A stretch of 63,709 bases of DNA, the filler included, from Reclinomonas americana ATCC 50394 (Eukaryota), in NCBI GenBank assembly GCA_048213135.1. It is 11 parts of 8 records of this genome, joined end to end, with 100 filler letters (N's around TTAATTAATTAA, not from the genome) between each part and the next. Parts side by side here need not be neighbours in the genome. Positions count along the whole stretch, not along the records: positions 26,196 to 34,903 come from PS015723.1; 10 more parts are not named here. One strand, written 5' to 3'. Below the pieces are notes generated by a model, which was given only the letters and a program-made list of their open reading frames with translations, had not been told where the DNA came from and made no database searches. Position numbers and translations under genes: made by a program. Positions within the stretch are counted from its first letter, which is position 1. Every line of letters begins with the position of its first letter. This document shows, in pieces, positions 10,834 through 52,300 of this stretch.

Positions 10834-10943
10834 CGCGCACGGCCCGCTTTTGTTGATTTGGTGGACAGAGTGCAGCGAGCGTCTGTCCCTTTCAGTAGGN
10901 NNNNNNNNNNNNNNNNNNNNNNNNNNNNNNNNNNNNNNNNNNN

Positions 10944-10955
10944 TTAATTAATTAA
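10944..10955. other. Artificial scaffold linker TTAATTAATTAA inside N runs (also at 16007, 26140, 34948, 45834, 49090, 55421, 57811, 60643, 62431)
   Basis: Identical 12-mer with stops in all six frames, flanked by fixed-length N runs. Confidence 0.97.
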
Positions 10956-11054
10956 NNNNNNNNNNNNNNNNNNNNNNNNNNNNNNNNNNNNNNNNNNNNC
11001 CCTTCTCCTCCCTCCCTTCCGTCTCCCGCCATTGCCTCACCACGTGCGTCGCAG

Positions 11055-15891: not shown

Positions 15892-16136
15892 CAAACGAAG
15901 TCGGTGTTGAGAAGGACAGATGTGCGCGGCGGTGACAATGTCGCTCGCGCTAGTCGTTACGANNNNNNNNNNNNNNNNNNNNNNNNNNNNNNNNNNNNNN
16001 NNNNNNTTAATTAATTAANNNNNNNNNNNNNNNNNNNNNNNNNNNNNNNNNNNNNNNNNNNNTCTTCGTGCTTTTCTTTGCCGTACTTTGCTTGTCGTGC
16101 CGTTCTCACACATCCTCCTGTGCTTTCCCGTGGCAG

Positions 16137-18634
16137 TTCAACCTCTTCGAATGCCCCACCTGTCCACCCCACAAGAACCAGCTCGACAATGTGTGGAAAC
16201 TGTACGTGAACAAACTCAATGGCTCCTACTTTTGCCATCGCTGTGGCACCCGTGGCTCGTGGTGGAACTTTAAGCAGCTCTACAACTCTGGCATCTCAAT
16301 CACGGACTGGAAAGGTCTCGTCAGTCGCGCTCGCGCACACACACACACTTGTCGCTTCACTAACCCTCGTTGTTGTCTTCTTGTTGTCAACCACAGGCGC
16401 CACACCCGACGCACAGAAGCCCATTTACCCCGACGAATCCACAGTCTCTCTCTACCCGGCGGCGCTGCAGTCGGTACTTTCCTCCCTCCTTCTCCCTCTC
16501 TCTCCCTCTCTCCTTCCCTCGCCCACCCTTGCTGACACAGAACCCCGACGTACTTCAACGTCTCGCCGACGAGCGCCGAGTGACCGCTCAAACTCTCGAC
16601 TTTTATCGCGTCGGCCTCGCCACCTACTCCTTCATGGACGACAAGGAGCGCAAGTGGGTGGAGCACGAGTGTCTCACCTTCCCGTGGATGGAACGCACGC
16701 GCCGCGGCTCCGACAAGTGGCGCACGATTCGGTTGAAGGTGCGCTCGCTGCTGCGCAAGGCATTCATGCGACTGGATCCGGCGGGCGGATCGTGGGGTCT
16801 CTTTGGGTGGCACACGGTGCCGGACGACGCCACGCAGCTGGTGCTCACCGAGGGCGAATTCGACGCGCTCGCAGTGTACCAGGCGACCGGAATGCCGGCC
16901 GTGTCGCTCCCCAACGGGTGTCGATCGCTGCCGCTCGAGCTCATCAAGCAGCTGGAGCGTTTTGACCGCATCTACTTGTGGATGGACGACGATGTGCCGG
17001 GGCAAGAAGGAGCAGTGCAGTTTGCGCAAAAGGTGAAGTGCGACTGAGAGAGAGAAAGAGTGAGTAGTAGATGTGGTCTCATTCGAGTGCGAGCAGCTGG
17101 GTCTGGAGCGCTGCTTCATTGTGCACGCCAAGGGCGACCAACCGGATGGACCGAAAGATGCTTGTGAGGCGCTGGTGCGCGGTCTCGACTTGTCGGAGCG
17201 GCTTCGTCAGGCGGCTCGCATCCCGCACCAGGCAATTCTCACCTTTGCCGATCTGAAAGCGGTGCGTGATGTGCTGCGGATGGGGAGAGGGGCAGCGAGT
17301 GAGAGAGGCATCGAGCAAGGTGTCGTACTGGTATCGTGTTGCTTTCCGCCTCATTCACCGCGGCATCGCTGCTACAGGACGTGTTGCGGGAGATTCTGAA
17401 TCCGGATCAGGTGGCTGGCGTGCAGAGTATGCATCTGCCGACGTTGAATGCCATTCTCAAGGTAACATTCCCCTCTCTTTACGACGCTGATTGCGTGTCG
17501 AGCAACTCATCCGCCGTCGCGCTCTCGCACAGGGTCACCGAAGTGGCGAACTCACCATTCTGACGGGTCCCACCGGCATCGGCAAGACGACCATTCTCTC
17601 GCAGATGTCGCTCGACTATGCATCGCAGGGTGTACGCACACTGTGGGGATCGTTTGAGATCAAGTTGCGCTGGTGTGCGTTCTGTGCATGATGTGCGTTG
17701 CAGTGTGCTGACACGCGTCCAACAGAAACACTCGACTGGCGCGCACGATGATGACGCAGTTTGCTGCGGAACCACTGGGACCGGCGAACTTTGAGGAGTG
17801 GGCCTCTCGTTTCTCCGAGGTGCCGATGTACTACCTCAAGTTCTTTGGCAGTACCGATGTGGACAAGGTTGGTCGGGCGTGTGATGATCTTGCACTTTGT
17901 TTCTTGCTATCTTTTGCACCCGTCTTCCATTCCCTATCTCTTTCCCATCTCCTCACCCTCCCCCTCCCTCCCCGCAGGTTCTCGACGCCCTCGAGTACGC
18001 GGCCTACGCCTACGACGTGCGCCATGTCGTCATCGACAACATCCAGTTCATGACCAGTGGGCAGGCGTACGGCGCCGACAAGTTCGACATGATGGACCGC
18101 GCCATTGACAAGTTTCGCAATTTTGCCTCCTCCCGCAACGTGCACGTCACGCTGGTGATCCACCCGCGGAAAGTCGACGACGAGGAACGCCTGGGCGTCA
18201 GCTCGGTGTTTGGCACGGCCAAGGCGACACAGGAGGCCGACAATATCATTATCGTGCAGCGAGGCACTGCGTTTAGGTGAGCCTTCCACGCGCTGTTGTC
18301 GCGCCTCTTTCGTGCTCAACACCCTTCGTCGCGCAGATACCTGGAGGTGAAGAAGAATCGCTTCGACGGTGAACTCGGTCGCATTCCGTTCCTCTTCGAC
18401 AAGGCCACGTCGAAGATCTACGAACTGTCGTCAGAGGAGCAGCGACAGCTGGAGGCGCAGTACCAGCAGCAGTTGCAGGAGAGTGGCGAGTCGTCGCCCA
18501 GATCGTCGTCGTCGTCGTCGTCGTCAATGTCGTGGTCGAATCGCTCGTCGGGTGGTCGTGGCACGCGACGCAAGTACGCGTCGTCGCCCGGCAGTGCATC
18601 GCCCGGTGGCGGCGAGGGCACACTAATGACGTGA
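16137..18634 (+). CDS. TWNK: Twinkle mitochondrial primase-helicase (T7 gp4-like), multi-exon
   Basis: Zn motif CPTC...[21 protein letters not shown] and WMDDD, Walker [56 protein letters not shown]. Confidence 0.95.
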
Positions 18635-18733: not shown

Positions 18734-19657
18734 TTACTTGGTGTTCTTCCACTGGAAGTAGCCGGTCACAAACGCACCAAGCATGCCGAGCCAGCCAATG
18801 ACATCGTTCCGCAGACCAATGCCACCGGGAACGCCCCAGTGCACGGCCAGCACCAGATCGGCCGTCATCTTGGCCGACTTCCACCATGTGGCCCGTCGCT
18901 TCGCGCGCACCGTCTCCAGCTCATCGCGCAACGCCGCCACATTCTCCGACGGCGCTGCCGTGACAATCGAACGCTCCAGCTCGCGTTGCCTGGCCGCCGC
19001 CAACCGGTCGCGCAGCAACATGGACGAGATGTCCATGACCAGGTTGACGACCCACAACCACATGGTGGCGAGCTCCACGGGCGTCGACACATGCTCCGGC
19101 ATCGTGCCCGGGCTCATGTAGTTCACCCACAGCGCCATCTCCAGTGGATTGTAGGCAATCATGCTGAGCGCCGATATGTCGTCGCAGCGTGAGGCCACTC
19201 GCAGGCGCCAATCCGACGACTGTCGCTCGGCATTCGGCGACGCCACCACCAGTGCATAGTCGATGCCCATGAAGAAGCGCAGACAGTAGCGCGTCATGGA
19301 GAGACCGCTGCCGACTTTTTGCACGGTGGTCAGAATGTGCTTGGCGCGCTCCGAGTTCGCCGGCATGTGTTGCGAGAGGTGGTAGGCTGTTCACACGAGT
19401 AAGTAAAAAAAAGATGCATTTCCCGCGCGTGCGTGTGTGTCTTGTCAAACTGATGATCAGTGTGTGCGTGTGCATGTGTGTATGTGGAGAGTGTGCGAGA
19501 AGAGACACACACACACATTCGCGTGTGGTGAGACGCAACAGACGATTTTGGAACCGTAGGCCAGAGAGCGATACACCTTGTCGGCTCCCCAAATTCCACT
19601 GAGGAAGCGCGAGAGACGGCCCAGCGTCTGCAGTGCGCTTGAGGTGCTGTCGGACAT
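18734..19657 (-). CDS. PEX11: Peroxisomal biogenesis factor 11 family protein
   Basis: N-terminal GADKVYRSLAYG, LSMTRYCLRFF, YNPLE, C-terminal ADLVLAVHW...IGWLGMLGA...W typical of PEX11; one intron. Confidence 0.8.
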
Positions 19658-23155: not shown

Positions 23156-25700
23156 TGCCTCGTTTTCTGTCGGCGTAAAGGTAGGGGGAAAGGTAAGGCG
23201 ACAAGTATATGGGGAGGCTGGTGGGAACAACGCACCGAGCTTCTCCGTGAAAAAGTCCACCTTGCCGCTCTGCACCGCCACTCCACTCGGCTGCACAATG
23301 TACATTTGCGCCGAGTACCGACGCCCCGGCAGGAGCGTGCCGCCCAACTCCATTCGCTCGTCGGCCACGTGGCCGACGGCATATGCAACGGGTGTCTTCA
23401 TCGGATTGACCGTGTCCTGTGATGCAGACAGTGAGCATGCAGGAAGAGGAGCAGGGGGTGGATTGATAAATGTACAGTGGATGTGAATCTCAATTGGAGT
23501 TGACGTACCAAAATCGCTGCGATGCACGGCGCCCCATCGACCGTGTGCGGTGGCAGCATCCACGTGATTGTCACTCCGTACGGTGTGGTACGGTCGACCT
23601 GCAACGACATGGGCTCTGCACGAGACACACAGTTGTCAGTGAGAGGCGCAGAATTCCAGAAACGACGGCACAGCGCACCTTGGCATTTCCACACACGCAA
23701 ACGCCGGTCGTCACCACCCGTGGCCAGCGCGAGCCCATCGGGGCTCCACTGCACCGTGTTGATGCCGCCGCGGTGTGCGTCTTCGATGCATTGTTGCTCG
23801 GAGTACGGGTACGATGCGTCCCACTGTCACGTCGGTGCAAGTGAGCAAGAAATGAAGACTTGCGAGAAGCTCTATCTGCAAAATGCCTCTATGACAATGA
23901 CCGACTGCAGTGGCGCACTGTCTGCTCCTTGTATCATCTATTGGCACAGTCCATTGTTAGAATTCGTGGTGCACTGTCTACAAAGCGCCACTTCTACGGC
24001 TACAGCGAGTCGCCGGCATCATCGCGCACTCTCAGCAAAGTGTCACTATGACTATTGCGGACTGCGAACTTTCGTGGTGCACTGCGTGCTCTTTGTGTTC
24101 CTAACAGCGCAGCTCATTGCCAGCATTCGTGGTGCACTCTGTGTGCAAAGTGCCCCAACCACAACTAAATCGTACGCAGACTCATTTCGTGGTCTACTCG
24201 GTGCCAAGCTCTACAAATACGGCGGACTGCAGACATGCGTGGGGTGCACTCTGTGCAAGGAGACTCCTCTGCGAACTGCAAAAAGCTTGCGGTCCACTGC
24301 CTGTTCTTTGTGCTCGTGGTTCGCTATCTGCAAAGCGTCCCTTCCAGGAACTTCAAACATTCTCCCTCCACACAAACACACGCTTCCTTCTCACTACCGC
24401 CACGCACCACTCGCAAAGTCCGATCCAGTGAGACGGATGCGATTCGTGTGCCGTCGTGTCGCAATGACACGCCCATGATCGCTTCCTGTGGCGCCGAGTG
24501 AGCACACGAATTGTGATTGAGGAGGCAGGGCATGGCGCTTGTAACGCACCTTGTGGCCGACAAATGTGGTCAACAGCTCGCCCGTTTCGGCATTCCACAG
24601 CTTCAGCTGTCGATCGTACGAGCCCGACACGCAGGTGGGCACCCAATCACCCGCCGACTGAACGAGTGCGGTGAGTGTCTGAGTGGTCACACAGTAGTCA
24701 CACGAGAAGCGACTCGACTTACCGACTGCTGCAGAGCACCTGACACGGTGGTGATACCGGCAGTGTGGGAGCGCAGCACGTGCAGTGACTCGGCGGAGCC
24801 ACGCCGCGTGTCCCACACTCGCAGTGTCGAGTCCTCGGAGCTGCAGAGGCGCGGATGAGCAACCCCGATGACATTCATCACCACCTGGAGCCCATGGCCA
24901 CTCACCACGACACAATCAGGTGATCCTTGTCGGCCCACGTCACACCCGTCACCGCCAGTGTGTGCCCAACCAGTTTGGTGGCCTGTTCTCGCGACCGAAT
25001 GTCCCACAGACAGCACATGTTGTCTTTGGAGACAGAGGCCAGCAGCGACTCTTCACGTGGGTGGAAGGCGACGCCCGACACTCCCGACGTGTGCCCGCCC
25101 TCGAGCGTTACTGGTGGGGTGTCGGCCTGCATGACAGCCACAGAGAGGGAGAGAAAAACGAGACACGGCCGTTGGCATTGCGGAGGGATGTGCACGCCGA
25201 CGACGATGATGCAGAAGCTCACCACAGGCTGCGATCCAAAAGTCCACAAGAGAATGTTGCCGTCCTCGGAGCACGTGGCTGCAAGAAGGAAGACGAGTCA
25301 CAACAAAGCATTCGTGTGGACGGTGTGCCGATTTACGCACCCAGCATTGCTCCCTGCACATCCCCATGATGGACACGACATGAGCACACAGGAAGGCTGC
25401 AGCACGTGGAATGACACACAGAACGCACCGACACGCTCCACGACATCGACCGCACATTGTTGGTGTGGCCGTGCAGGGTGTCGGCCAGGCTAAACTCACG
25501 TCCTCGCGCCAGCAACTTGGCACGGTACTCGACGCTCGTGGCGACCTGTCAGACGGGCGGTGAGGAGATGACGGACACACACACACACAGAGAGAGAGAG
25601 AGGATCATATAAACCTCGTCGGGGCGCGACGGAGGCGCCGAGTCCCACACAGTGACGGATTGATTGTGTTTCAGCAGTCCTGCGATGGGAGAAGGAGGGA
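23156..25700 (-). CDS. WD40-repeat protein with a C-terminal beta-rich domain, partial
   Basis: Repeated GH...WD units: LHGHTNNVRSMSWS, GGHTSGVSGVAFHP...CLWD, LVGHTLAVTGVTW...LRVWD, SGSYDRQLKLWN, LATGGDDRRLRVWK. Confidence 0.9.
23860..24340. repeat. Degenerate minisatellite of about 55-bp period inside a long WD40 intron
   Basis: Core TTCGTGGTGCACT at 23963, 24071 and 24126, with variants near 23908, 24021, 24186, 24237 and 24313. Confidence 0.65.
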
Positions 25701-29335: not shown

Positions 29336-31013
29336 ATGTCTCGTCCGGATTCTCCGGCCTCTTTCCACTCGGCGCCTGATCGTCCGCCGGCTCGTGACGC
29401 CGCCAGTGTGCCGCCGCTCGTGTCAGTTGCGTGGCAACAGTGACAAGCCTCAAGCGATTTCCCCGCCCGCTCACTCACAATGCTTACGTCATCAGCAGGC
29501 GGAGCAAGCTCGCGCACGACCGCTGCAGCCGTTGTATCGCCCACCGAGCTCTGCCTCGTATCACAGCTCCCGGTCGTTCCCCGAGTTCGCCATGCCTCCG
29601 ACGCCGCCGCCCATGCGGTCTGAGGCGGTCGTGAACCGACCGGCTGCGCCAAGTTGAGTTGTCTCTGCTCCCTCTGCTGTCTGGGCAGAATGAGCTCACT
29701 CTTGTGTGACTTTCACAGCTCCCGACGCGACCCCGACCAAGCTCCCTCCGTCGGATTCCCCACCGGACGACCGTGGCCACGACAGACGACGCCGTGGTGG
29801 CGGTGGCGATGGTCGTCGTGGTCGAGCAGGTGGTGCCGGTGGTGGAGCGCGAGGTTCTGGCGGCGGCGCCGTTGTGCCCGTACGCAACGCCGCCAACAAC
29901 TACAACAACGTTCCCGGTCGCGAGTTGATTCCGCGCGATCCGAGTCCCGAAGTCGTGCAGGTGCGTGTGTTCGGATAGTCGTGACAGGTGTTTTCCTCTC
30001 AGCTCATCACGTCTCTCGCAGCGTTCCTACGGCTCCTCGCCAACGTGGAACGATGCCGATCGCCGACAGGTCGCGCGACGCGACTATCCGTACGGCGGAG
30101 ACTGGGCGCTGTCGGCCATGGACGACGTGGAGCGCGTCGGTCAGTCCATGATGCAACGCATGCACAGCACCATGGAGAGTTGCGTGCAAAGGACTGCGTG
30201 TGTGAGTCTCAATGCATTGTCTCACTGTCTCTCTCGCAATCGCTGCCGCACAGACATGTTCACCAACATGCAGCGTGCATTCGCCGACGTGAACCTCGGC
30301 TATCCGGACGCACTGTGGGACTCCATGGCGCCGAGTCGCGAACCGCTGCGCATGCAGGCCAGTTCGCCGTCGAAGCCCTTGCGGTGCTTCACGACCACAC
30401 GTACCACGCGCGGCACTGGAGGGGTGTGTGTGCATGCGCGGTGTGATGCGAGCGCTGAACCTGTGGCAGTGTGCTCACTGTCGTTGTGTGCGCGCAGGTG
30501 ATTGAGACGGAGCGCATCAGCAAGGACTATGAGGCAGGCACAGAGCAGCGAGTTGCGTGGCCTACCAAAGTGCCTTTGTCAATCGATATAGTGCTGACGC
30601 TGTGCTGCACAGTGGGTGAAGCGCGAGGCGAACGGAGCGGCGCACACAGTGGTGAGTGAAACGCTGAGGAATTCGCCAGTTAGACAACAGGTGTGCTTAC
30701 TGACCGGTTCGTGAACAGGGCTACGTTCGCGATGCAAGCGGGCGCGACGAGACCATTGACTACGTGGAGAACATGGACGAAGGTTTGCTTGCCACCTTGT
30801 CTGCCTAGAAAGACTCTCTCCTGTCTTTTTCTGACGTCGCGTGCAGCCCATCGAACCCAATTCGACGACGCCTGGAACGCCACGTACGAGCACTCGCTGC
30901 CGGCTTGGAGCCGGCGCAACCACCCCGAGTACCGCGCTCTGCAGCAGCAGACATTGCCGCCCTCCGTCATGCGCCTGCCGGCCATCACCGCCAGCGCCAG
31001 CGGACGCCGTTGA
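29336..31013 (+). CDS. Myeloid leukemia factor (MLF)-like protein with a Pro-rich N-terminus
   Basis: Spliced C-terminal region TTRTTRGTGGVIETERISKDYEAGTEQRWVKRE...GAAHTV...DETIDYVENMDE...TQFDDAW parallels the MLF domain pattern (GG.KET...D...G.E...AH......F...W). Confidence 0.7.
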
Positions 31014-31061: not shown

Positions 31062-32784
31062 ATGGCGGTTGTAAACATGTGTTTGACGCAAGTTCAATCA
31101 TGGATCGTCAAAGCAATCACGAGAGCCGGCTTGCAAATTGGTTCTTTCTCCGAACACTCCGTCTCTCTCTCTTTTGTTTCACGCACGCACAAGTTGCGCA
31201 CACCGTCTCCACTCCCTCCCACCCACTCCCTCTCTCTCTCACTCACTCTGACTCCCTCACAGTGTCACTCGCACCAGTGATCGACACCGGCGACACCGTC
31301 ACATTTCGTTGGCCTGTGAGTGACAGCGCCTCACAGTCCTCCTCCGTGCTGGTCACTGGCAGCTGGGACCGATGGTCGTCGCGAGTGCCACTCGATCGAC
31401 GAGTGACAGTCACTGCCTTGTCGGAGGCACACACAACAACACCAAGTGATTGGTGGGAGGCGAGAGTATTCATCCCCTCGGATGTGGTGCAGATCGAGTA
31501 CAAGGTGAGCGGGGAGAGTGAGTGAGAGAGAGTGAGAGTGAGAGAGTAAGAGAGCAAGCAAGGACATTTTTGGCTTCTGTCATCGTTTCCCCTGCATCAT
31601 CATCACTCGTGTGTTCACTTTGTGTTTCCACACACACATCGACACGCACGTACACACACACACGTGAGCATCGCGCCTTTTGTTGCTGATCGAATATTCG
31701 CATCTTCTTCCCTTGCAGTTCATTGTCAATGGCATTTGGTTGTTGGATCCGGCGGCGCCGACGGTGACTGCGCCCGAGGGCTACATCAACAACGTGCTGC
31801 AGTTGGAGGATATGGTGGCGCGACGCATTCGTGAGGCGCAGGCACGTGAGCGGCAACGACGGGAGGAGGAGCTGAAGGAGAAGGAGAAGCAGGATCGACA
31901 GGTACGTGCGCGGAGGTCGGGCGCTGTTTTTTTCCCCTCCACTGTGCGCGACTCATTGCGTGTGTTGGCAGCCGTGGCGATGCAGGTGCTGTGCTAGTCA
32001 GCGTCGCAGAGACTCTCTGCCGTGCGCTTACCTGTGTTTGTGTGGGGTGCGCAGGAATTGCTGGGGCACAGTGTCAAATCTCACTCCGGGTCCTTGTCGG
32101 TTCCATCCAGTTGCGAGTCTGAATCTACGTCCACTGCTCTGCGTGCGTTTCTCACCCCCCATTTTCCTCGATGCACAGGGCCGGGTGTGTGCTCTTTGGT
32201 GCTATTGTTGTCGAATCATCTGTGCGACCCACTGACATGCATTCCATTTTTTGTTCCCTTGCTGTCTCGGTGGATTCACGGACACAGTGTGTGAGTTGTC
32301 GTTGTCTAGCCGTGTGTGCCTCTGTTCTCTCGCACTGACGTGCTATTCATCCCCGCAGATTGTGCGTTATCAAGTGTCTTGCAAACGTTGTTGTTGTCGG
32401 TGTTCCTTTCTGACACATCTGCGTTCCATCTCTTGTCGACGCGTGATCCGCTGTGCAGGGAGTGCGTTGTTTTCGTGTTCCTTTGTGATTCTGTGCCATT
32501 GTGCTGCTGCTCACATGCTTCGTGTCTGCGCAGAGAGTTGTGTGCCTGGATGCCGTGTGCGTGTGTGGTGCATGTTGACTCACTTTGCGTTTCTCTCATC
32601 TCCATGACGCACGACAACTCAAACAGCGAGTTGCGTCTGGAGCGCTCTCCCGTGATTGTGCACTGTCCGCGGCTAAACTGCGCGTGTATGTGTGCGTCAT
32701 GTGCAGTGGGCCTGCTGCGGATCCGATCCAGAGGCGACCGGCTGCAAGTTTACTCAATTCCACGAGCGTGAAACCCCGGATTAA
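31062..32784 (+). CDS. CBM48 (AMPK-beta-like glycogen-binding) + coiled coil + CHORD/Btk-like zinc-finger protein, built with 3-nt micro-exons
   Basis: VTFRW...VLVTGSWDRW...IEYKFIVNGIWLLDP...GYINNVL is CBM48-like. The spliced C-terminus is PWRCRNCWGTVSNLTPGPCRFHPGRCIGRRWACCGSDPEATGCKFTQFHERETPD*. Confidence 0.8.
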
Positions 32785-33754: not shown

Positions 33755-34300
33755 TTAGGGGGCCGAGAAGGGCGAGGTCTGGCAGGTGAGGCCAGAGTAC
33801 GAGCCACAGCAGTTGCCGTTGCCGAGGTGCTGCGAGACGCCCGGGCACGAGGCGGTGCCGGCGGCCACGTCGGGGTAGTTGTTGCAGGCGTAGTGGCACT
33901 GGCAGGTCAGGTCAGCCTTGCAGTAGCCGTTGCTGTTGCAGGCGCCCGGGGCGTCAGTGCACGCCGGGGTCGGTGGTGGCGGCGGTGGCGGGGGGACCGG
34001 CCACACAGCGGGGAAGGGCGAGTTCTGGCAGGTGAGGCCAGAGTACGAGCCGCAGCAGTTGCCGTTGCCGAGGTCGTCGGTGCCGGGCGGGCACGGCGAG
34101 GTGCCAGCGGCCACAGCGGCGTAGTTCTTGCAGTTGTAGTAGCACGAGCAGGTCAGGTCAGCCTTGCAGAAGCCGTTGCTGTTGCAGGCACCCGGGGCGT
34201 CGGTGCACACGCCAGCCGGCGGGTACACAGCGGGGAAGGGGGAGATCTCGCAGTTGGCACCCGAGTAGTAGCCGCAGCAGTTGCCGTTGCCGAGGGTGTC
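33755..34300 (-). CDS. Secreted Cys-rich tandem-repeat protein (10 Cys per 74-82 aa unit), C-terminal part
   Basis: Repeats of CxYxCxNYxxVAAGTxxCP...LGNGNCCGxYSGxxC..SPFPAV..CTDAPGACNSNG[FY]CKADLTC with DNA periods of 246 and 222 nt; stop at 33755. Confidence 0.85.
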   Translation of the reverse strand, partial: DTLGNGNCCGYYSGANCEISPFPAVYPPAGVCTDAPGACNSNGFCKADLTCSCYYNCKNYAAVAAGTSPCPPGTDDLGNGNCCGSYSGLTCQNSPFPAVWPVPPPPPPPPTPACTDAPGACNSNGYCKADLTCQCHYACNNYPDVAAGTASCPGVSQHLGNGNCCGSYSGLTCQTSPFSAP

Positions 34301-34320
34301 NNNNNNNNNNNNNNNNNNNN

Positions 34321-34425
34321 GTCGCCGTCCTCGCCTTGTGCGTGGCCGCTGCCCTTGCCTGCAACTACAACTGCAAGAACTACGCTGAGGTCGCCGCCGG
34401 CACCGTGCCGTGCCCGCCCGGCACC
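34321..34425 (+). CDS. Signal-peptide end and first repeat of the same Cys-rich protein (inverted segment); probable start MSKILF at 34886-34903
   Basis: VAVLALCVAAALA followed by CNYNCKNYAEVAAGTVPCPPGT matches the repeat unit. Confidence 0.7.
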
Positions 34426-35003
34426 NNNNNNNNNNNNNNNNNNNNNNNNNNNNNNNNNNNNNNNNNNNNNNNNNNNNNNNNNNNNNNNNNNNNNNNNNNN
34501 NNNNNNNNNNNNNNNNNNNNNNNNNNNNNNNNNNNNNNNNNNNNNNNNNNNNNNNNNNNNNNNNNNNNNNNNNNNNNNNNNNNNNNNNNNNNNNNNNNNN
34601 NNNNNNNNNNNNNNNNNNNNNNNNNNNNNNNNNNNNNNNNNNNNNNNNNNNNNNNNNNNNNNNNNNNNNNNNNNNNNNNNNNNNNNNNNNNNNNNNNNNN
34701 NNNNNNNATTCGATGCACTGACGTTTTTGGCAAGCGTAGCCATGTTTTTCCCCACCCCATATTTGGCCAGGTGGTGTAATTTTTCCGGCCAGCGGCTCCG
34801 CGCCGCACATTGGCGGGATTCCGAGGCCACGAGCATTATTCATATCTTTCTCACTCACCTCGAGAGAGCAGACCACCTCCCCAAAATGTCCAAGATCCTC
34901 TTCNNNNNNNNNNNNNNNNNNNNNNNNNNNNNNNNNNNNNNNNNNNNTTAATTAATTAANNNNNNNNNNNNNNNNNNNNNNNNNNNNNNNNNNNNNNNNN
35001 NNN

Positions 35004-49354: not shown

Positions 49355-52300
49355 TTAGACGCAGGCGGCGACCGAAGTGGAGCCTTGTCCGGCGGTGGTC
49401 TTGCCTGCTGGGCACGGTGTGCACACCGGTGACCCTGGAGCGTCCGAGTACTGGCCAATGGGGCAGTTGACGCACGAGGTCTGGCCGCTGAGCGACTGGT
49501 ACTTGCCCTTGGGGCAACTCGCACACGCTCCACCGCCTGTGGTATCTGTGTGTGTGCATATGTGTGTGCAAGTGAATACGGGGCCACGAGGAGGAGAGGG
49601 GCGTCGAGGGGGGCGCACATTCTCCAGGCTGGCAATTGTAGCAAGCGTCTCTCCGGAAGGCCGACGTCTGACCGTTGGTGCACGTGGCGCACGATGTGGC
49701 GGGCACGAGTGCATTCCATGTGCCAGGCACACAGTTCAGGCACTGACGACCGCCGTTGCCGTACGTGCCTGCACGCATGCACAGGAGGGCGGTGAGGCGG
49801 GCCATACACACACAAAACATGAGCGGCGATGAGGCGCACCATTCACGCATTGCTCGAGACGCCCGTCGCGACATGACGAGTTGGTGGGGCACTTGGTGCA
49901 CACGCCATTGTTGTTGTACTCGTCGGCTTTGCACGGTGATCCGACTCCGTTGACACACACCTGGACGAGAAACATGGTCAGGTCAGGGAAATGCGACGCT
50001 TCCTCTCACGCTCTCGATCCTACACCCTCAACCATCGCCTCGCAATCTACTCACCCAGCCCGACGGACACGTGGCGCACGTCGACTGGCCGCCGAACGAG
50101 TGCATGCCGGCGATGGCACAACTGTACCGCTGCGAAGCCGAGCACGCCGACGCCAATTCGCACCAGTGACAAGTGCCGCGGCGCTTCACCTCATAATAGT
50201 AGCCAGGCTGGCAGGAACACGCAACTGCGCAAAGAAGACAGGAAGTCACGGGTTAAACACTCCTCTTTCTGTCACGCGCAGAGATGCAGACACGCAACTG
50301 GTCGGATTGGCCACGATTTCGACGTCGTCAAAGAGCACAGCGCCCGATGTGAAGCCCGACAGCGTGAGCGTCAGCTGCACCGACGTGATACTGCCGGTGG
50401 TCATGGTCAAGTCGTAGCTGAGCGACTGCCACACACCGACCTGACCAGCCGCCGTGTTGAAGGCGAGTTGTTGAGTGGATCCTGCGTTAGGGGAGGAGGC
50501 GAGGGTGAGGCACAGGTCGGAATCCCGAGGAGAGAGGGTACTGCCAACAACAAGCCGCCTGACAAAACCTACACCCCAGCATGCTTCTCTTCTCTTCTTT
50601 CCCCTCCCTTTGCCCTCTCGCCAAACCTGGTGTTATGACCGCAGTCATGCGCCAGTTGCCAGCGCCAACCAGTGCCGTACGCATGTATCCCTTGACGCGC
50701 ACACGGAAGTTGACGGCGTTGGTCTCCTGCACCGTAATGGTCTGCGTCGCCGAGTTGGTGCCACCGTTGCCGTCCATGCGCAGGAAGGGCGCGGTGCCGG
50801 TGCCGGCCGCGTTGCTGTCGATCACGTACGAGCCTGACGAGAGCGTCCATCGCTCCAGTGCGTTGGTGGCTCCCTGCGTGAACTCGGGCCACAGCATGTT
50901 GCCATTCAGCACCCAGCCTCCACCAATGGCATTGATGGCCGCTGCGGATGCATGAGGAAACCAAAGAGACGGCAGAGTGCGACATTCTCTCTCACACACA
51001 CACACACCGTAGTTTGCACTCGCACATGACACGCACTGCGAGTAGCCAACCAGCGAGTACTGATTCGCTGCGCAGGCTGTGCACGCCGACGCTCCTGAGC
51101 CGCTGTATGTGGAAGCCGGACAGCGCTGGCACACGGAGAACGAGGATCCGCCAGCGGTGGTGCTGTACGTGCCAGGAATGCAGGGGACGCATTGTGTGAG
51201 GCCAGTCTGGCCCCAGGTGCCGGCCGCACATCCAGTGCACTGGTTGACATTGGTGAGGCCCGGAGCACCACCAAATGTGCCCGGTGGACAGCCGACTGCG
51301 CATCATGAGCGTGAGTATGAAGCGCAAGAAAAGGTACGCCGCCGAGCAGACGACGCAACTGCAACTGGCCACACTCTGAGCGTTTGTGCCCGGGAAGTAT
51401 GTGCCTTGTGGACACTGCGCCGTCAATCACGAGTGAAATTTTAGAAGCCGCTGCGACGCAAAGTGTCGATTGCGGGACGGACGCAACATTGATACACGAC
51501 GACTGTCCGGTCTGGTCTTGGTATTGGCCTGCGGGGCACACCGTGCAACTCGTCTGACCCAGCAAATTCTGTGCACCCATCGCAGTACGTCAGCATCCAT
51601 CAGTGAATTATCGTGCTCGAGTGCGCTCACCTGGAATGTGCCCTTGGCGCAGGCGACACAGGAGGAGAGTAGGGACTGGCCGCTCAGCGTCGATAACATG
51701 GAGGTACCGGCTGCGCAGCGAAAGAGGAGGTAAGTGGGTGAAGCAGCGGCATAGTTCGCAAGTGAGGAATACCTGGGCACTGGATGCAAGACGTGGACTG
51801 CGAGTTTGGTTGATATCTGCAACCAGAACACAAGAGGTGAGGCCAGCGGAATTGCAAGGCGATGAGCAAACGGCAAGAAGGACGCACGTTCCCGCGATAC
51901 AATTCAGACAAGAACCGGCTCCACCCTGCACCAAAAAAATCGAGAATTCTTTTCAGAAGACATGTCGCCCACCAACTCATTCCACAGCAGTGCAACAAAC
52001 CGCGGCCTTGTAGGTGCCCGGATTGCAAGGCGTACAAGATGCGGCACTCGCACCACTGCAAGGGACACGGTGCATGTCAGCTGTGGCGAGGCACACGGTT
52101 GGCAACACAGTGATAACTCACCTATAGGTGCCAGCTGCGCAGGACTGGCAGGCGGCCGTGTTGGGTGCACCGAACGAGCCGGCAGTGCATGCCGTGCAGG
52201 TGCTGCTGCCGGCCACGGACACGGCACCAGTCTGCGCACAGAGCCACCGAGTGAGTTTCACATCACGAACTACTGAGACGCATGCGTAGTGGTACTGTGC

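Follow-up and report, generated by a model that had tools for sequence, protein, structure and literature searches.

A small gene of Reclinomonas americana ATCC 50394 is predicted to be split in its 3′ part by nine short spliceosomal introns, seven of which stand back to back and leave between them one exon of 6 nucleotides (nt) and five exons of a single codon each. The gene lies in the part of the analyzed DNA that comes from PS015723.1, and all coordinates are positions in the whole stretch of 63,709 nt, hereafter referred to as the window. The chain of seven introns is real and highly non-random. We assign a probability of about 0.5 to the exact reading, in which five consecutive 3-nt exons would be present in the mRNA. 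When this reading is taken together with its variant involving other donors or partial skipping of micro-exons, the seven-intron architecture is probably functional in some form. The predicted product of 223 amino acids (aa) would carry a Cys/His zinc finger at its C-terminus, after a CBM48-like module and a charged helix. In this finger, the seven residues supplied by the micro-exons would lie between FHP and W-x-CC and form the His-to-CysCys loop.

A chain of seven adjoining introns

The locus 32110-32706 consists of seven adjoining GT...CAG introns of 68-103 nt, and the exons between them measure 6, 3, 3, 3, 3, and 3 nt. Downstream of the exon at 31719-31901, the exons are 14, 55, 6, 3, 3, 3, 3, 3, and 78 nt long, and the introns, all of the GT...CAG type, are 70, 69, 69, 103, 68, 97, 72, 90, and 77 nt long. 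Every junction from 32109 onward is in phase 0, and the length of each micro-exon is a multiple of three. An earlier reading of the sequence, referred to here as the original prediction, had described this region as back-to-back GT-AG introns ending in CAG with phase-0 flanks. Both features were borne out for the nine introns and for all junctions from 32109 on, respectively, and the coordinates that it gave for the exons and introns are all correct. The spliced product is in frame, with 55 codons open across ten junctions. The complete gene model runs from a probable start at 31062 to a TAA stop at 32782-32784 and comprises 223 codons in 12 exons.

The chain was recovered by a dynamic-programming parse in which only the outer ends (32110 and 32706) were fixed and micro-exons were kept in frame; the parse returned exactly the seven introns of the original prediction. 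Relative to one undivided intron, the parse gains 61.9 nats. The mean gain of 1000 dinucleotide shuffles was 13.2 (standard deviation 8.2, maximum 48.9), and none of them reached 61.9; mononucleotide shuffles of the locus gave z=5.1. When both strands of the window were scanned for intron chains, the locus ranked first for every chain length k from 3 to 8, scoring 77.2 at k=8 vs 53.8 for the next candidate. Within the window, a search for [CT]AG-(NNN)1-3-strong donor gave 46 matches (21 on the plus strand and 25 on the minus strand), six of which fall within 32176-32624. Furthermore, GT occurs at +3 after a CAG in 205 of 2418 cases outside the locus (8.5%) and after five of five acceptors within it, which corresponds to P of about 4e-6 against a base rate of 8.2-8.5%.

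The distribution of AG dinucleotides follows the same units. Seven of the 16 AGs in 32110-32706 are the proposed 3′ splice sites, and the other nine all lie 18 nt or less after a proposed 3′ site; consequently, an AG-free stretch of 47-101 nt precedes each of these sites. The observed count is 16 vs 21 expected. Four other predicted long introns of the window (230-664 nt) have observed/expected counts of 24/24, 72/39, 31/20, and 21/10, and carry no chain signal (z from -1.2 to 1.3). In the seven units, a branch-like motif is located 45, 51, 48, 52, 52, 46, and 47 nt from the donor, and in each unit the 3′ splice site is the first AG past this CT[ACG]A[CTA] motif.

Comparison with reference introns

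Reference introns were inferred from the window sequence itself. Naive enumeration of introns flanked by open reading frames (ORFs) yielded 91,815 candidates and was of no use in this GC-rich DNA. A self-trained Viterbi exon/intron parse converged on 215 introns; since this parse over-calls tiny exons, only the 64 introns between two exons with good codon scores, each at least 60 nt, were kept as the reference set, with the locus excluded. The median length of these introns is about 68 nt: 50 of the 64 measure 55-82 nt, and six measure 230-723 nt. The donors include GTTGCG (9/64), GTTTGT (5/64), and GTGTGT, GTGCGT, and GTGAGT (4/64 each), and the acceptors are mainly [GT]TGCAG, GCACAG, or GCGCAG. 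A branch-like CT[ACG]A[CT] motif is found in 44 of the 57 short reference introns. In 33 of these 44 introns, the A of the motif is 41-52 nt away from the 5′ site; its distance to the 3′ site is 12-31 nt, with a single exception at 43 nt. Because the donors fall into several classes, a position-weight donor model had little power.

The units of the chain resemble the 64 reference introns in length, donor types, and position of the branch motif. The branch candidates of the original prediction (CTGAC/CTCAC/CTAAA-like) lie at distances from the donors like those in the reference introns. The introns of a Twinkle-like gene elsewhere in the window, delimited by protein continuity, measure about 57-116 nt and have donors including GTGCGT, GTGAGC, GTTGCG, and GTTGGT, in agreement with the reference set in both length and donor types.

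The donors of this DNA have a feature of their own. The commonest inferred 5′ splice-site hexamer is GTTGCG, and GTT-type donors such as GTTTGT and GTTGGT are frequent (for example at 17664-17725, 32110, and 32630). A T at +3 is an unusual consensus, and one such donor is backed by protein continuity in the Twinkle-like gene.

Gene structure and upstream modules

The predicted exons and the intron chain are collected in Table 1. Single-exon Pfam searches gave AMPK1_CBM (PF16561) scores of 20.4 and 19.7 bits vs a cutoff of 26.8, and a CBM53 (PF16760) score of 24.5 vs a cutoff of 27.6. The query for 31263-31504 held 10 intron bases at its start. Within the AMPK1_CBM and CBM53 profiles, the two CBM-like exons match consecutive segments.

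Table 1. Predicted exons and intron chain of the gene, with the evidence for each (window coordinates)
Feature	Position	Strand	Evidence and remarks
Probable first coding exon	31062..31140	+	ATG at 31062, 79 nt; ORF and frame join to exon 2; 5′ extent of gene uncertain
Exon 2, first part of CBM48/CBM53-like module	31263..31504	+	Pfam CBM53 E=3.3e-5, AMPK1_CBM E=6e-4, both below gathering score
Exon 3, end of CBM48-like module and charged helical stretch	31719..31901	+	AMPK1_CBM profile 51-81/85, E=1e-3; coding score +39.7 in frame
14-nt exon, predicted first Cys of finger	31972..31985	+	Acceptor 98.5th percentile, donor 91st; flanking introns 70 and 69 nt
55-nt exon, predicted second and third Cys and FHP of finger	32055..32109	+	Acceptor 96th percentile; donor GTTGCG, commonest type (9/64)
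Seven-intron chain	32110-32178, 32185-32287, 32291-32358, 32362-32458, 32462-32533, 32537-32626, 32630-32706	+	Unbiased parse, branch-like motifs, AG-free tracts
6-nt exon GGCCGG (Gly-Arg), Gly would complete HPG	32179..32184	+	Acceptor 4.9, donor GTGTGT 4.7
3-nt exon TGT (Cys)	32288..32290	+	Acceptor 2.7, donor GTGAGT 4.5; exon length of 3 gives best donor
3-nt exon ATT (Ile)	32359..32361	+	Acceptor 6.4, donor GTGCGT; in-frame 15-nt alternative 32359-32373 via GTGTCT at +15
3-nt exon GGA (Gly)	32459..32461	+	Acceptor 4.4, donor GTGCGT; exon length of 3 best
3-nt exon AGA (Arg), weakest donor of the set	32534..32536	+	Acceptor 7.6 (99.6th percentile); donor GTTGTG; out-of-frame GTGCGT at +23
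3-nt exon CGA (Arg), weakest acceptor of the set	32627..32629	+	Acceptor -0.3 (59th percentile); donor GTTGCG, best type
Last coding exon, W-x-CC, x8, C, x5, H, TAA	32707..32784	+	Coding score +6.1, best in predicted frame

At the 5′ end of the model, a TGA at 31011-31013 ends the ORF of an upstream predicted gene; it is in the same frame as the ATG at 31062 and stands 48 nt before it. Through a GTTGAT donor at 31009, this upstream ORF would be connected in phase with the acceptor at 31262. The part encoding the CBM-like module and the zinc finger may be the C-terminus of a longer protein.

The predicted zinc finger

Read in order, the micro-exons GGCCGG, TGT, ATT, GGA, AGA, and CGA would contribute G, R, C, I, G, R, and R, and the predicted H-to-CC loop is composed of P, G, R, C, I, G, R, R, W, and A. 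In the predicted C-terminal tail, Cys residues occupy positions 4, 7, 19, 26, 33, 34, and 43, and His residues positions 22 and 49. With the Cys of the TGT micro-exon set aside, the pattern is C-x2-C-x11-C-x2-H-x10-CC-x8-C-x5-H.

The original prediction had assigned this pattern to the CHORD/Btk type of zinc finger. The part of the claim that concerns the ligands stands, as the eight ligands follow the order of CHORD II and the H-x10-CC spacing is that of Btk; the separate exons gave no Pfam match to either family. We therefore describe the finger as CHORD/Btk-like by pattern and do not call it a member of either family.

CHORD II of Rar1 is described as binding two zinc ions, one via C159, C164, C178, and H218 and the other via H181, C196, C197, and C213 (PMC2935968). 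The finger predicted here has its eight ligands arranged as in CHORD (PF04968), namely C, C, C, H, CC, C, H, including the C-x2-H spacing, at tail positions 4, 7, 19, 22, 33, 34, 43, and 49, which suggests, by analogy, that it may also contain two zinc sites. In contrast, the spacers are x2, x11, x2, x10, x8, and x5, compared with x4, x13, x2, x14, x15, and x4 in the published CHORD II numbering, so that all but one of those that differ are shorter. The conserved His plus Asp/Glu that the CHORD description places in the H-to-CC loop are absent from the predicted loop. Furthermore, the gene model has one finger rather than a tandem pair and lacks a CS partner, and no PF04968 match was obtained with the pieces searched.

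The zinc ligands reported for Btk are His143 and Cys154/155/165, corresponding to H-x10-CC-x9-C (PMC3836457). Like the Btk motif (PF00779), the predicted finger has HPG followed by W-x-CC, and its further Cys is at x8, vs x9 in that numbering. The 21 nt of the micro-exons would give exactly the H-to-CC distance of Btk (His143, Cys154/155). A 15-nt form of the exon at 32359 would instead give the CHORD distance. Since both loop lengths match a published spacing, the spacing cannot choose between the 3-nt and the 15-nt forms. Unlike the Btk motif, the predicted finger carries four additional ligands on its N-terminal side, and the last exon alone gave no match to a profile hidden Markov model. 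The Btk motif follows a PH domain, whereas the upstream exons of the locus match CBM53 and AMPK1_CBM, not PH. A feature-based comparison of the last exon led to an atlas cluster in which 13% of the members carry PF00779 BTK (score 0.86, 187 of 256 features shared), which we treat as a lead only.

Evidence weighed against the exact reading

Several observations weigh against five 3-nt exons placed exactly as predicted. The original prediction had regarded all the donors after the micro-exons as types usual in this genome; GTGTGT, GTGAGT, GTGCGT, and GTTGCG do occur in the reference set, but GTTGTG, at 32537, is absent from the 64 reference donors. The acceptor caaacag at 32626 is weak, and the codon score of the 55-nt exon is negative (-7.3). 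The self-trained gene parse missed the model, joining 31985 to 32179 and 32184 to 32707. In the three longer introns of the chain, the consensus branch motif lies 44-52 nt from the 3′ site, beyond the 12-31 nt of the reference introns (one at 43). In addition, Cys-rich frames arise by chance in GT-rich intron sequence, and reading through from 32179 to the TGA at 32233-32235 again gives H-x10-CC followed by C and H, an example of how readily such patterns are imitated by GT-rich DNA.

The homology searches fall on the same side. Pfam searches with the last exon alone and with the read-through piece returned 0 families at E up to 10, and a phmmer search of the PDB with the last exon returned 0 matches. 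A 35-aa piece with the last exon, compared with 1.84 billion representatives, retrieved only 2 spurious repeat proteins in which the motif is absent. The 84-aa CBM exon was sought among longer proteins, giving 664 candidates and none at E<=0.001; metagenome scans with the CBM exon and a 61-aa exon gave 596 and 598 pattern matches, none of which was confirmed.

The choice of donors also bears on the exact reading. When exon sizes are left free, all seven acceptors are kept but two or three donors shift. The acceptors are therefore robust and the donors less so, because the DNA past each micro-exon is GT-rich. On donor hexamer and length alone, the exon set [6,3,28,3,23,3] scores 24.0 vs about 18.4 for the predicted set (summed terms), and the exact donor is ambiguous after 32359 and 32534, with exons of 15, 23, or 28 nt doing at least as well there on these two terms. 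The +28 and +23 exons have an intron-like composition (-4.5 and -5.6), and their donors leave a CTGAC or CTCAC motif just about 26-27 nt away. On account of this composition and the short branch distance, we prefer the predicted donor set and place the in-frame 15-nt variant at 32359 next. The composition term deserves limited trust, since the 55-nt exon also has a negative score.

Alternative explanations

The least unlikely alternative retains the same seven introns and differs in one or two donors, or in partial skipping of the micro-exons. Its main in-frame form has a 15-nt exon at 32359-32373 and a finger with H-x14-CC, the spacing of H181 to C196 in the published CHORD II positions (PMC2935968). 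The donors at 32374, 32387, 32542, and 32561 score equal to or better than the predicted ones when exon sizes are free, the 15-nt variant comes within about 0.3 nats on donor and length, and the phase-0 junctions allow skipping with the frame kept. However, GTGCGT, the donor at +3, belongs to the most frequent types, whereas none of the 64 reference donors is GTGTCT. The composition of the alternative exons is intron-like throughout (-1.6 to -5.6), and the +28 and +23 donors have the drawback of branch distance already noted. Moreover, other donors would leave unexplained why GT stands at exactly +3 after five of five acceptors.

An early end of the coding sequence is improbable. In this case, the donor at 32185 would not be used, translation would end at the TGA at 32233-32235, and the later units would belong to the 3′ untranslated region or be relics. 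The donor concerned, GTGTGT, has low specificity, being the commonest GT hexamer of the window with 247 occurrences, and the read-through frame has no stop up to 32232 and is rich in Cys. Nevertheless, 32185 is followed by a 101-nt AG-free tract with CTGAC at +51, and the read-through sequence is itself intron-like (15% A in 32185-32287). An early end would also make a coincidence of the five further units, which are placed at exactly 3-nt spacing and sum in frame to a positive-scoring exon with a stop.

We consider it somewhat more doubtful still that the zinc finger is an artefact, with the region past 31901 being non-coding or a decayed gene end and the Cys and His residues arising from the picking of frames in GT-rich DNA. 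This explanation would account for the negative codon score of the 55-nt exon and for the lack of a Pfam, PDB, or sequence relative of the finger pieces searched, and Cys-rich frames are common in the DNA of the window. However, it would be strange for a non-coding tail of 805 nt to contain nine well-formed introns, and the last exon is not GT-rich and reaches its coding score of +6.1 in the predicted frame only. The frame that stays open through the 55 codons, the occurrence of all eight ligands in the order published for CHORD II, and the atlas lead to BTK, for what a lead is worth, also argue against an artefact.

Least probable of all is a single intron of 597 nt (32110-32706) with decoy sites inside and FHP joined directly to W-x-CC, since, although six of the 64 introns predicted elsewhere in the window are of 230-723 nt and the 32109/32707 junction is in frame, the chain signal is missing from the four other long introns and from the shuffles, the AG distribution contradicts it, and the resulting H-x3-CC is far below the x10 of Btk and the x14 of CHORD in their published forms.

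Proposed splicing order and origin

The exact reading, to which we give roughly even odds, implies that about 600 nt within the zinc-finger loop are handled as seven minimal introns, with the branch fixed 41-52 nt from the 5′ site and the loop built codon by codon. Each unit appears to be self-contained. It would consist of a 5′ site of the form GTG[AC]GT, GTGTGT, or GTTG[CT]G, a CT[GCA]A[CA] motif 45-52 nt further on, an AG-free tract, and the first AG as the 3′ site. The next donor would begin 3 nt past each 3′ site (6 nt in the first case), so that the mRNA would keep six micro-exons. Since a donor, a branch motif, and a first-AG acceptor are present in every unit, each should be removed alone, leaving one codon at the junction.

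The short and length-constrained introns point to intron definition as the probable mode of recognition. Neighbouring introns would presumably be removed in sequence and probably not be committed simultaneously, because a 3-nt exon lies wholly within the U1 footprint of the next donor, without room for a 3′-site complex beside U1. As every junction is in phase 0, skipping could give variants of the loop length; that micro-exons might be skipped so as to change the loop one residue at a time is pure conjecture.

The chain may have originated by subdivision of a long intron into workable units or by serial gain of introns at successive codons. Comparison of the introns with one another gave pairwise identities of 34-66% (gapped), and within the window no match longer than 16 nt elsewhere and no tandem repeat were found. 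Such dissimilarity speaks against an introner burst or a recent duplication. Origin from introners or by tandem duplication was accordingly rejected, there being no similarity between the introns or to other window sequence.

Relation to known micro-exons

Coding micro-exons of 1-15 nt have been described in plants and streptophyte algae (Yu et al. 2022, PMC8831610; Feng et al. 2024, PMC11096116). In a Peptidase M1 gene, two of them, 5 and 12 nt long, stand side by side, as verified by RNA sequencing (PMC8831610, PMC11096116). As described there, the plant and algal micro-exons resemble the exons predicted here in being coding exons of down to 1 nt between ordinary GT-AG introns that are often missed by annotation. 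They differ from the locus, in which six are predicted in a row, five of them of one codon and all in phase 0, with minimal introns between. In animals, RPS24 has micro-exons of 3, 18, and 22 bp (PMC12207440), and 3-nt exons are reported in hth, cytohesin-1, and MAP4K5. The animal 3-nt exons likewise represent one codon spliced in as an exon of its own. In the accounts of these genes, however, they are single, mostly alternative, and located in long introns with helpers of exon definition, whereas the locus has a constitutive-looking run, predicted from sequence, in a genome with introns of about 68 nt.

Recursive splicing offers a further comparison. At ratchet points, a 3′ and a 5′ site are juxtaposed as AG|GT and zero nucleotides are left behind (PMC8605326). 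The likeness to the locus is that, in the published scheme, a long stretch is removed stepwise via internal acceptor-donor pairs (PMC8605326). Unlike at the ratchet points so described, each step at the locus would leave 3 or 6 nt in the mRNA, and the ratchet-type CAGGT, in which AG abuts GT, occurs 0 times in 32110-32706.

A full-text literature search brought up no report of consecutive single-codon exons in the passages it returned; the nearest cases were the plant pair of 5 and 12 nt and the RPS24 trio. Single micro-exons of 1-3 nt are thus already known, and the serial run would be the new element. If the exact reading is true, the run of single-codon exons at this locus would be the longest known, and 3 nt would suffice as an exon repeatedly and in series, with strictly ordered splicing being forced. 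The locus would then provide a test case for intron definition when exons are too short for any exon-bound factor, for a fixed order in the removal of neighbouring introns, and for the origin of such chains by subdivision of a long intron or by repeated gain at successive codons. Standard gene finders and read aligners would be expected to mis-annotate genes of such structure.

Other features of the window

The eukaryotic DNA of the window has a G+C content of about 58% and contains many gaps. Ten of them consist of 44 N, TTAATTAATTAA, and 44 N, which form a linker with stops in all six frames; the first is at 10900-10999, and the others are at 15963, 26096, 34904, 45790, 49046, 55377, 57767, 60599, and 62387. 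Because contigs are joined artificially by this linker, neighbourhood across these ten points is meaningless.

A candidate 13-nt exon, called by the parser that over-calls tiny exons, is located at 25341-25353 on the minus strand in a WD40 gene, between introns of 75 and 62 nt and with a GTGCGT donor. The Twinkle-like primase-helicase gene occupies 16200-18631 on the plus strand; it has Toprim_2 and AAA_25 matches and about seven short introns. A PEX11 gene at 18737-19390 on the minus strand stands tail to tail with it. Cys-rich repeat proteins are encoded on the minus strand at 33760-34900 and 49358-51600. One Cys-rich ORF, interrupted by gaps, combines a Pro run with Cys-rich modules, and another gene contains Ephrin_rec_like repeats.

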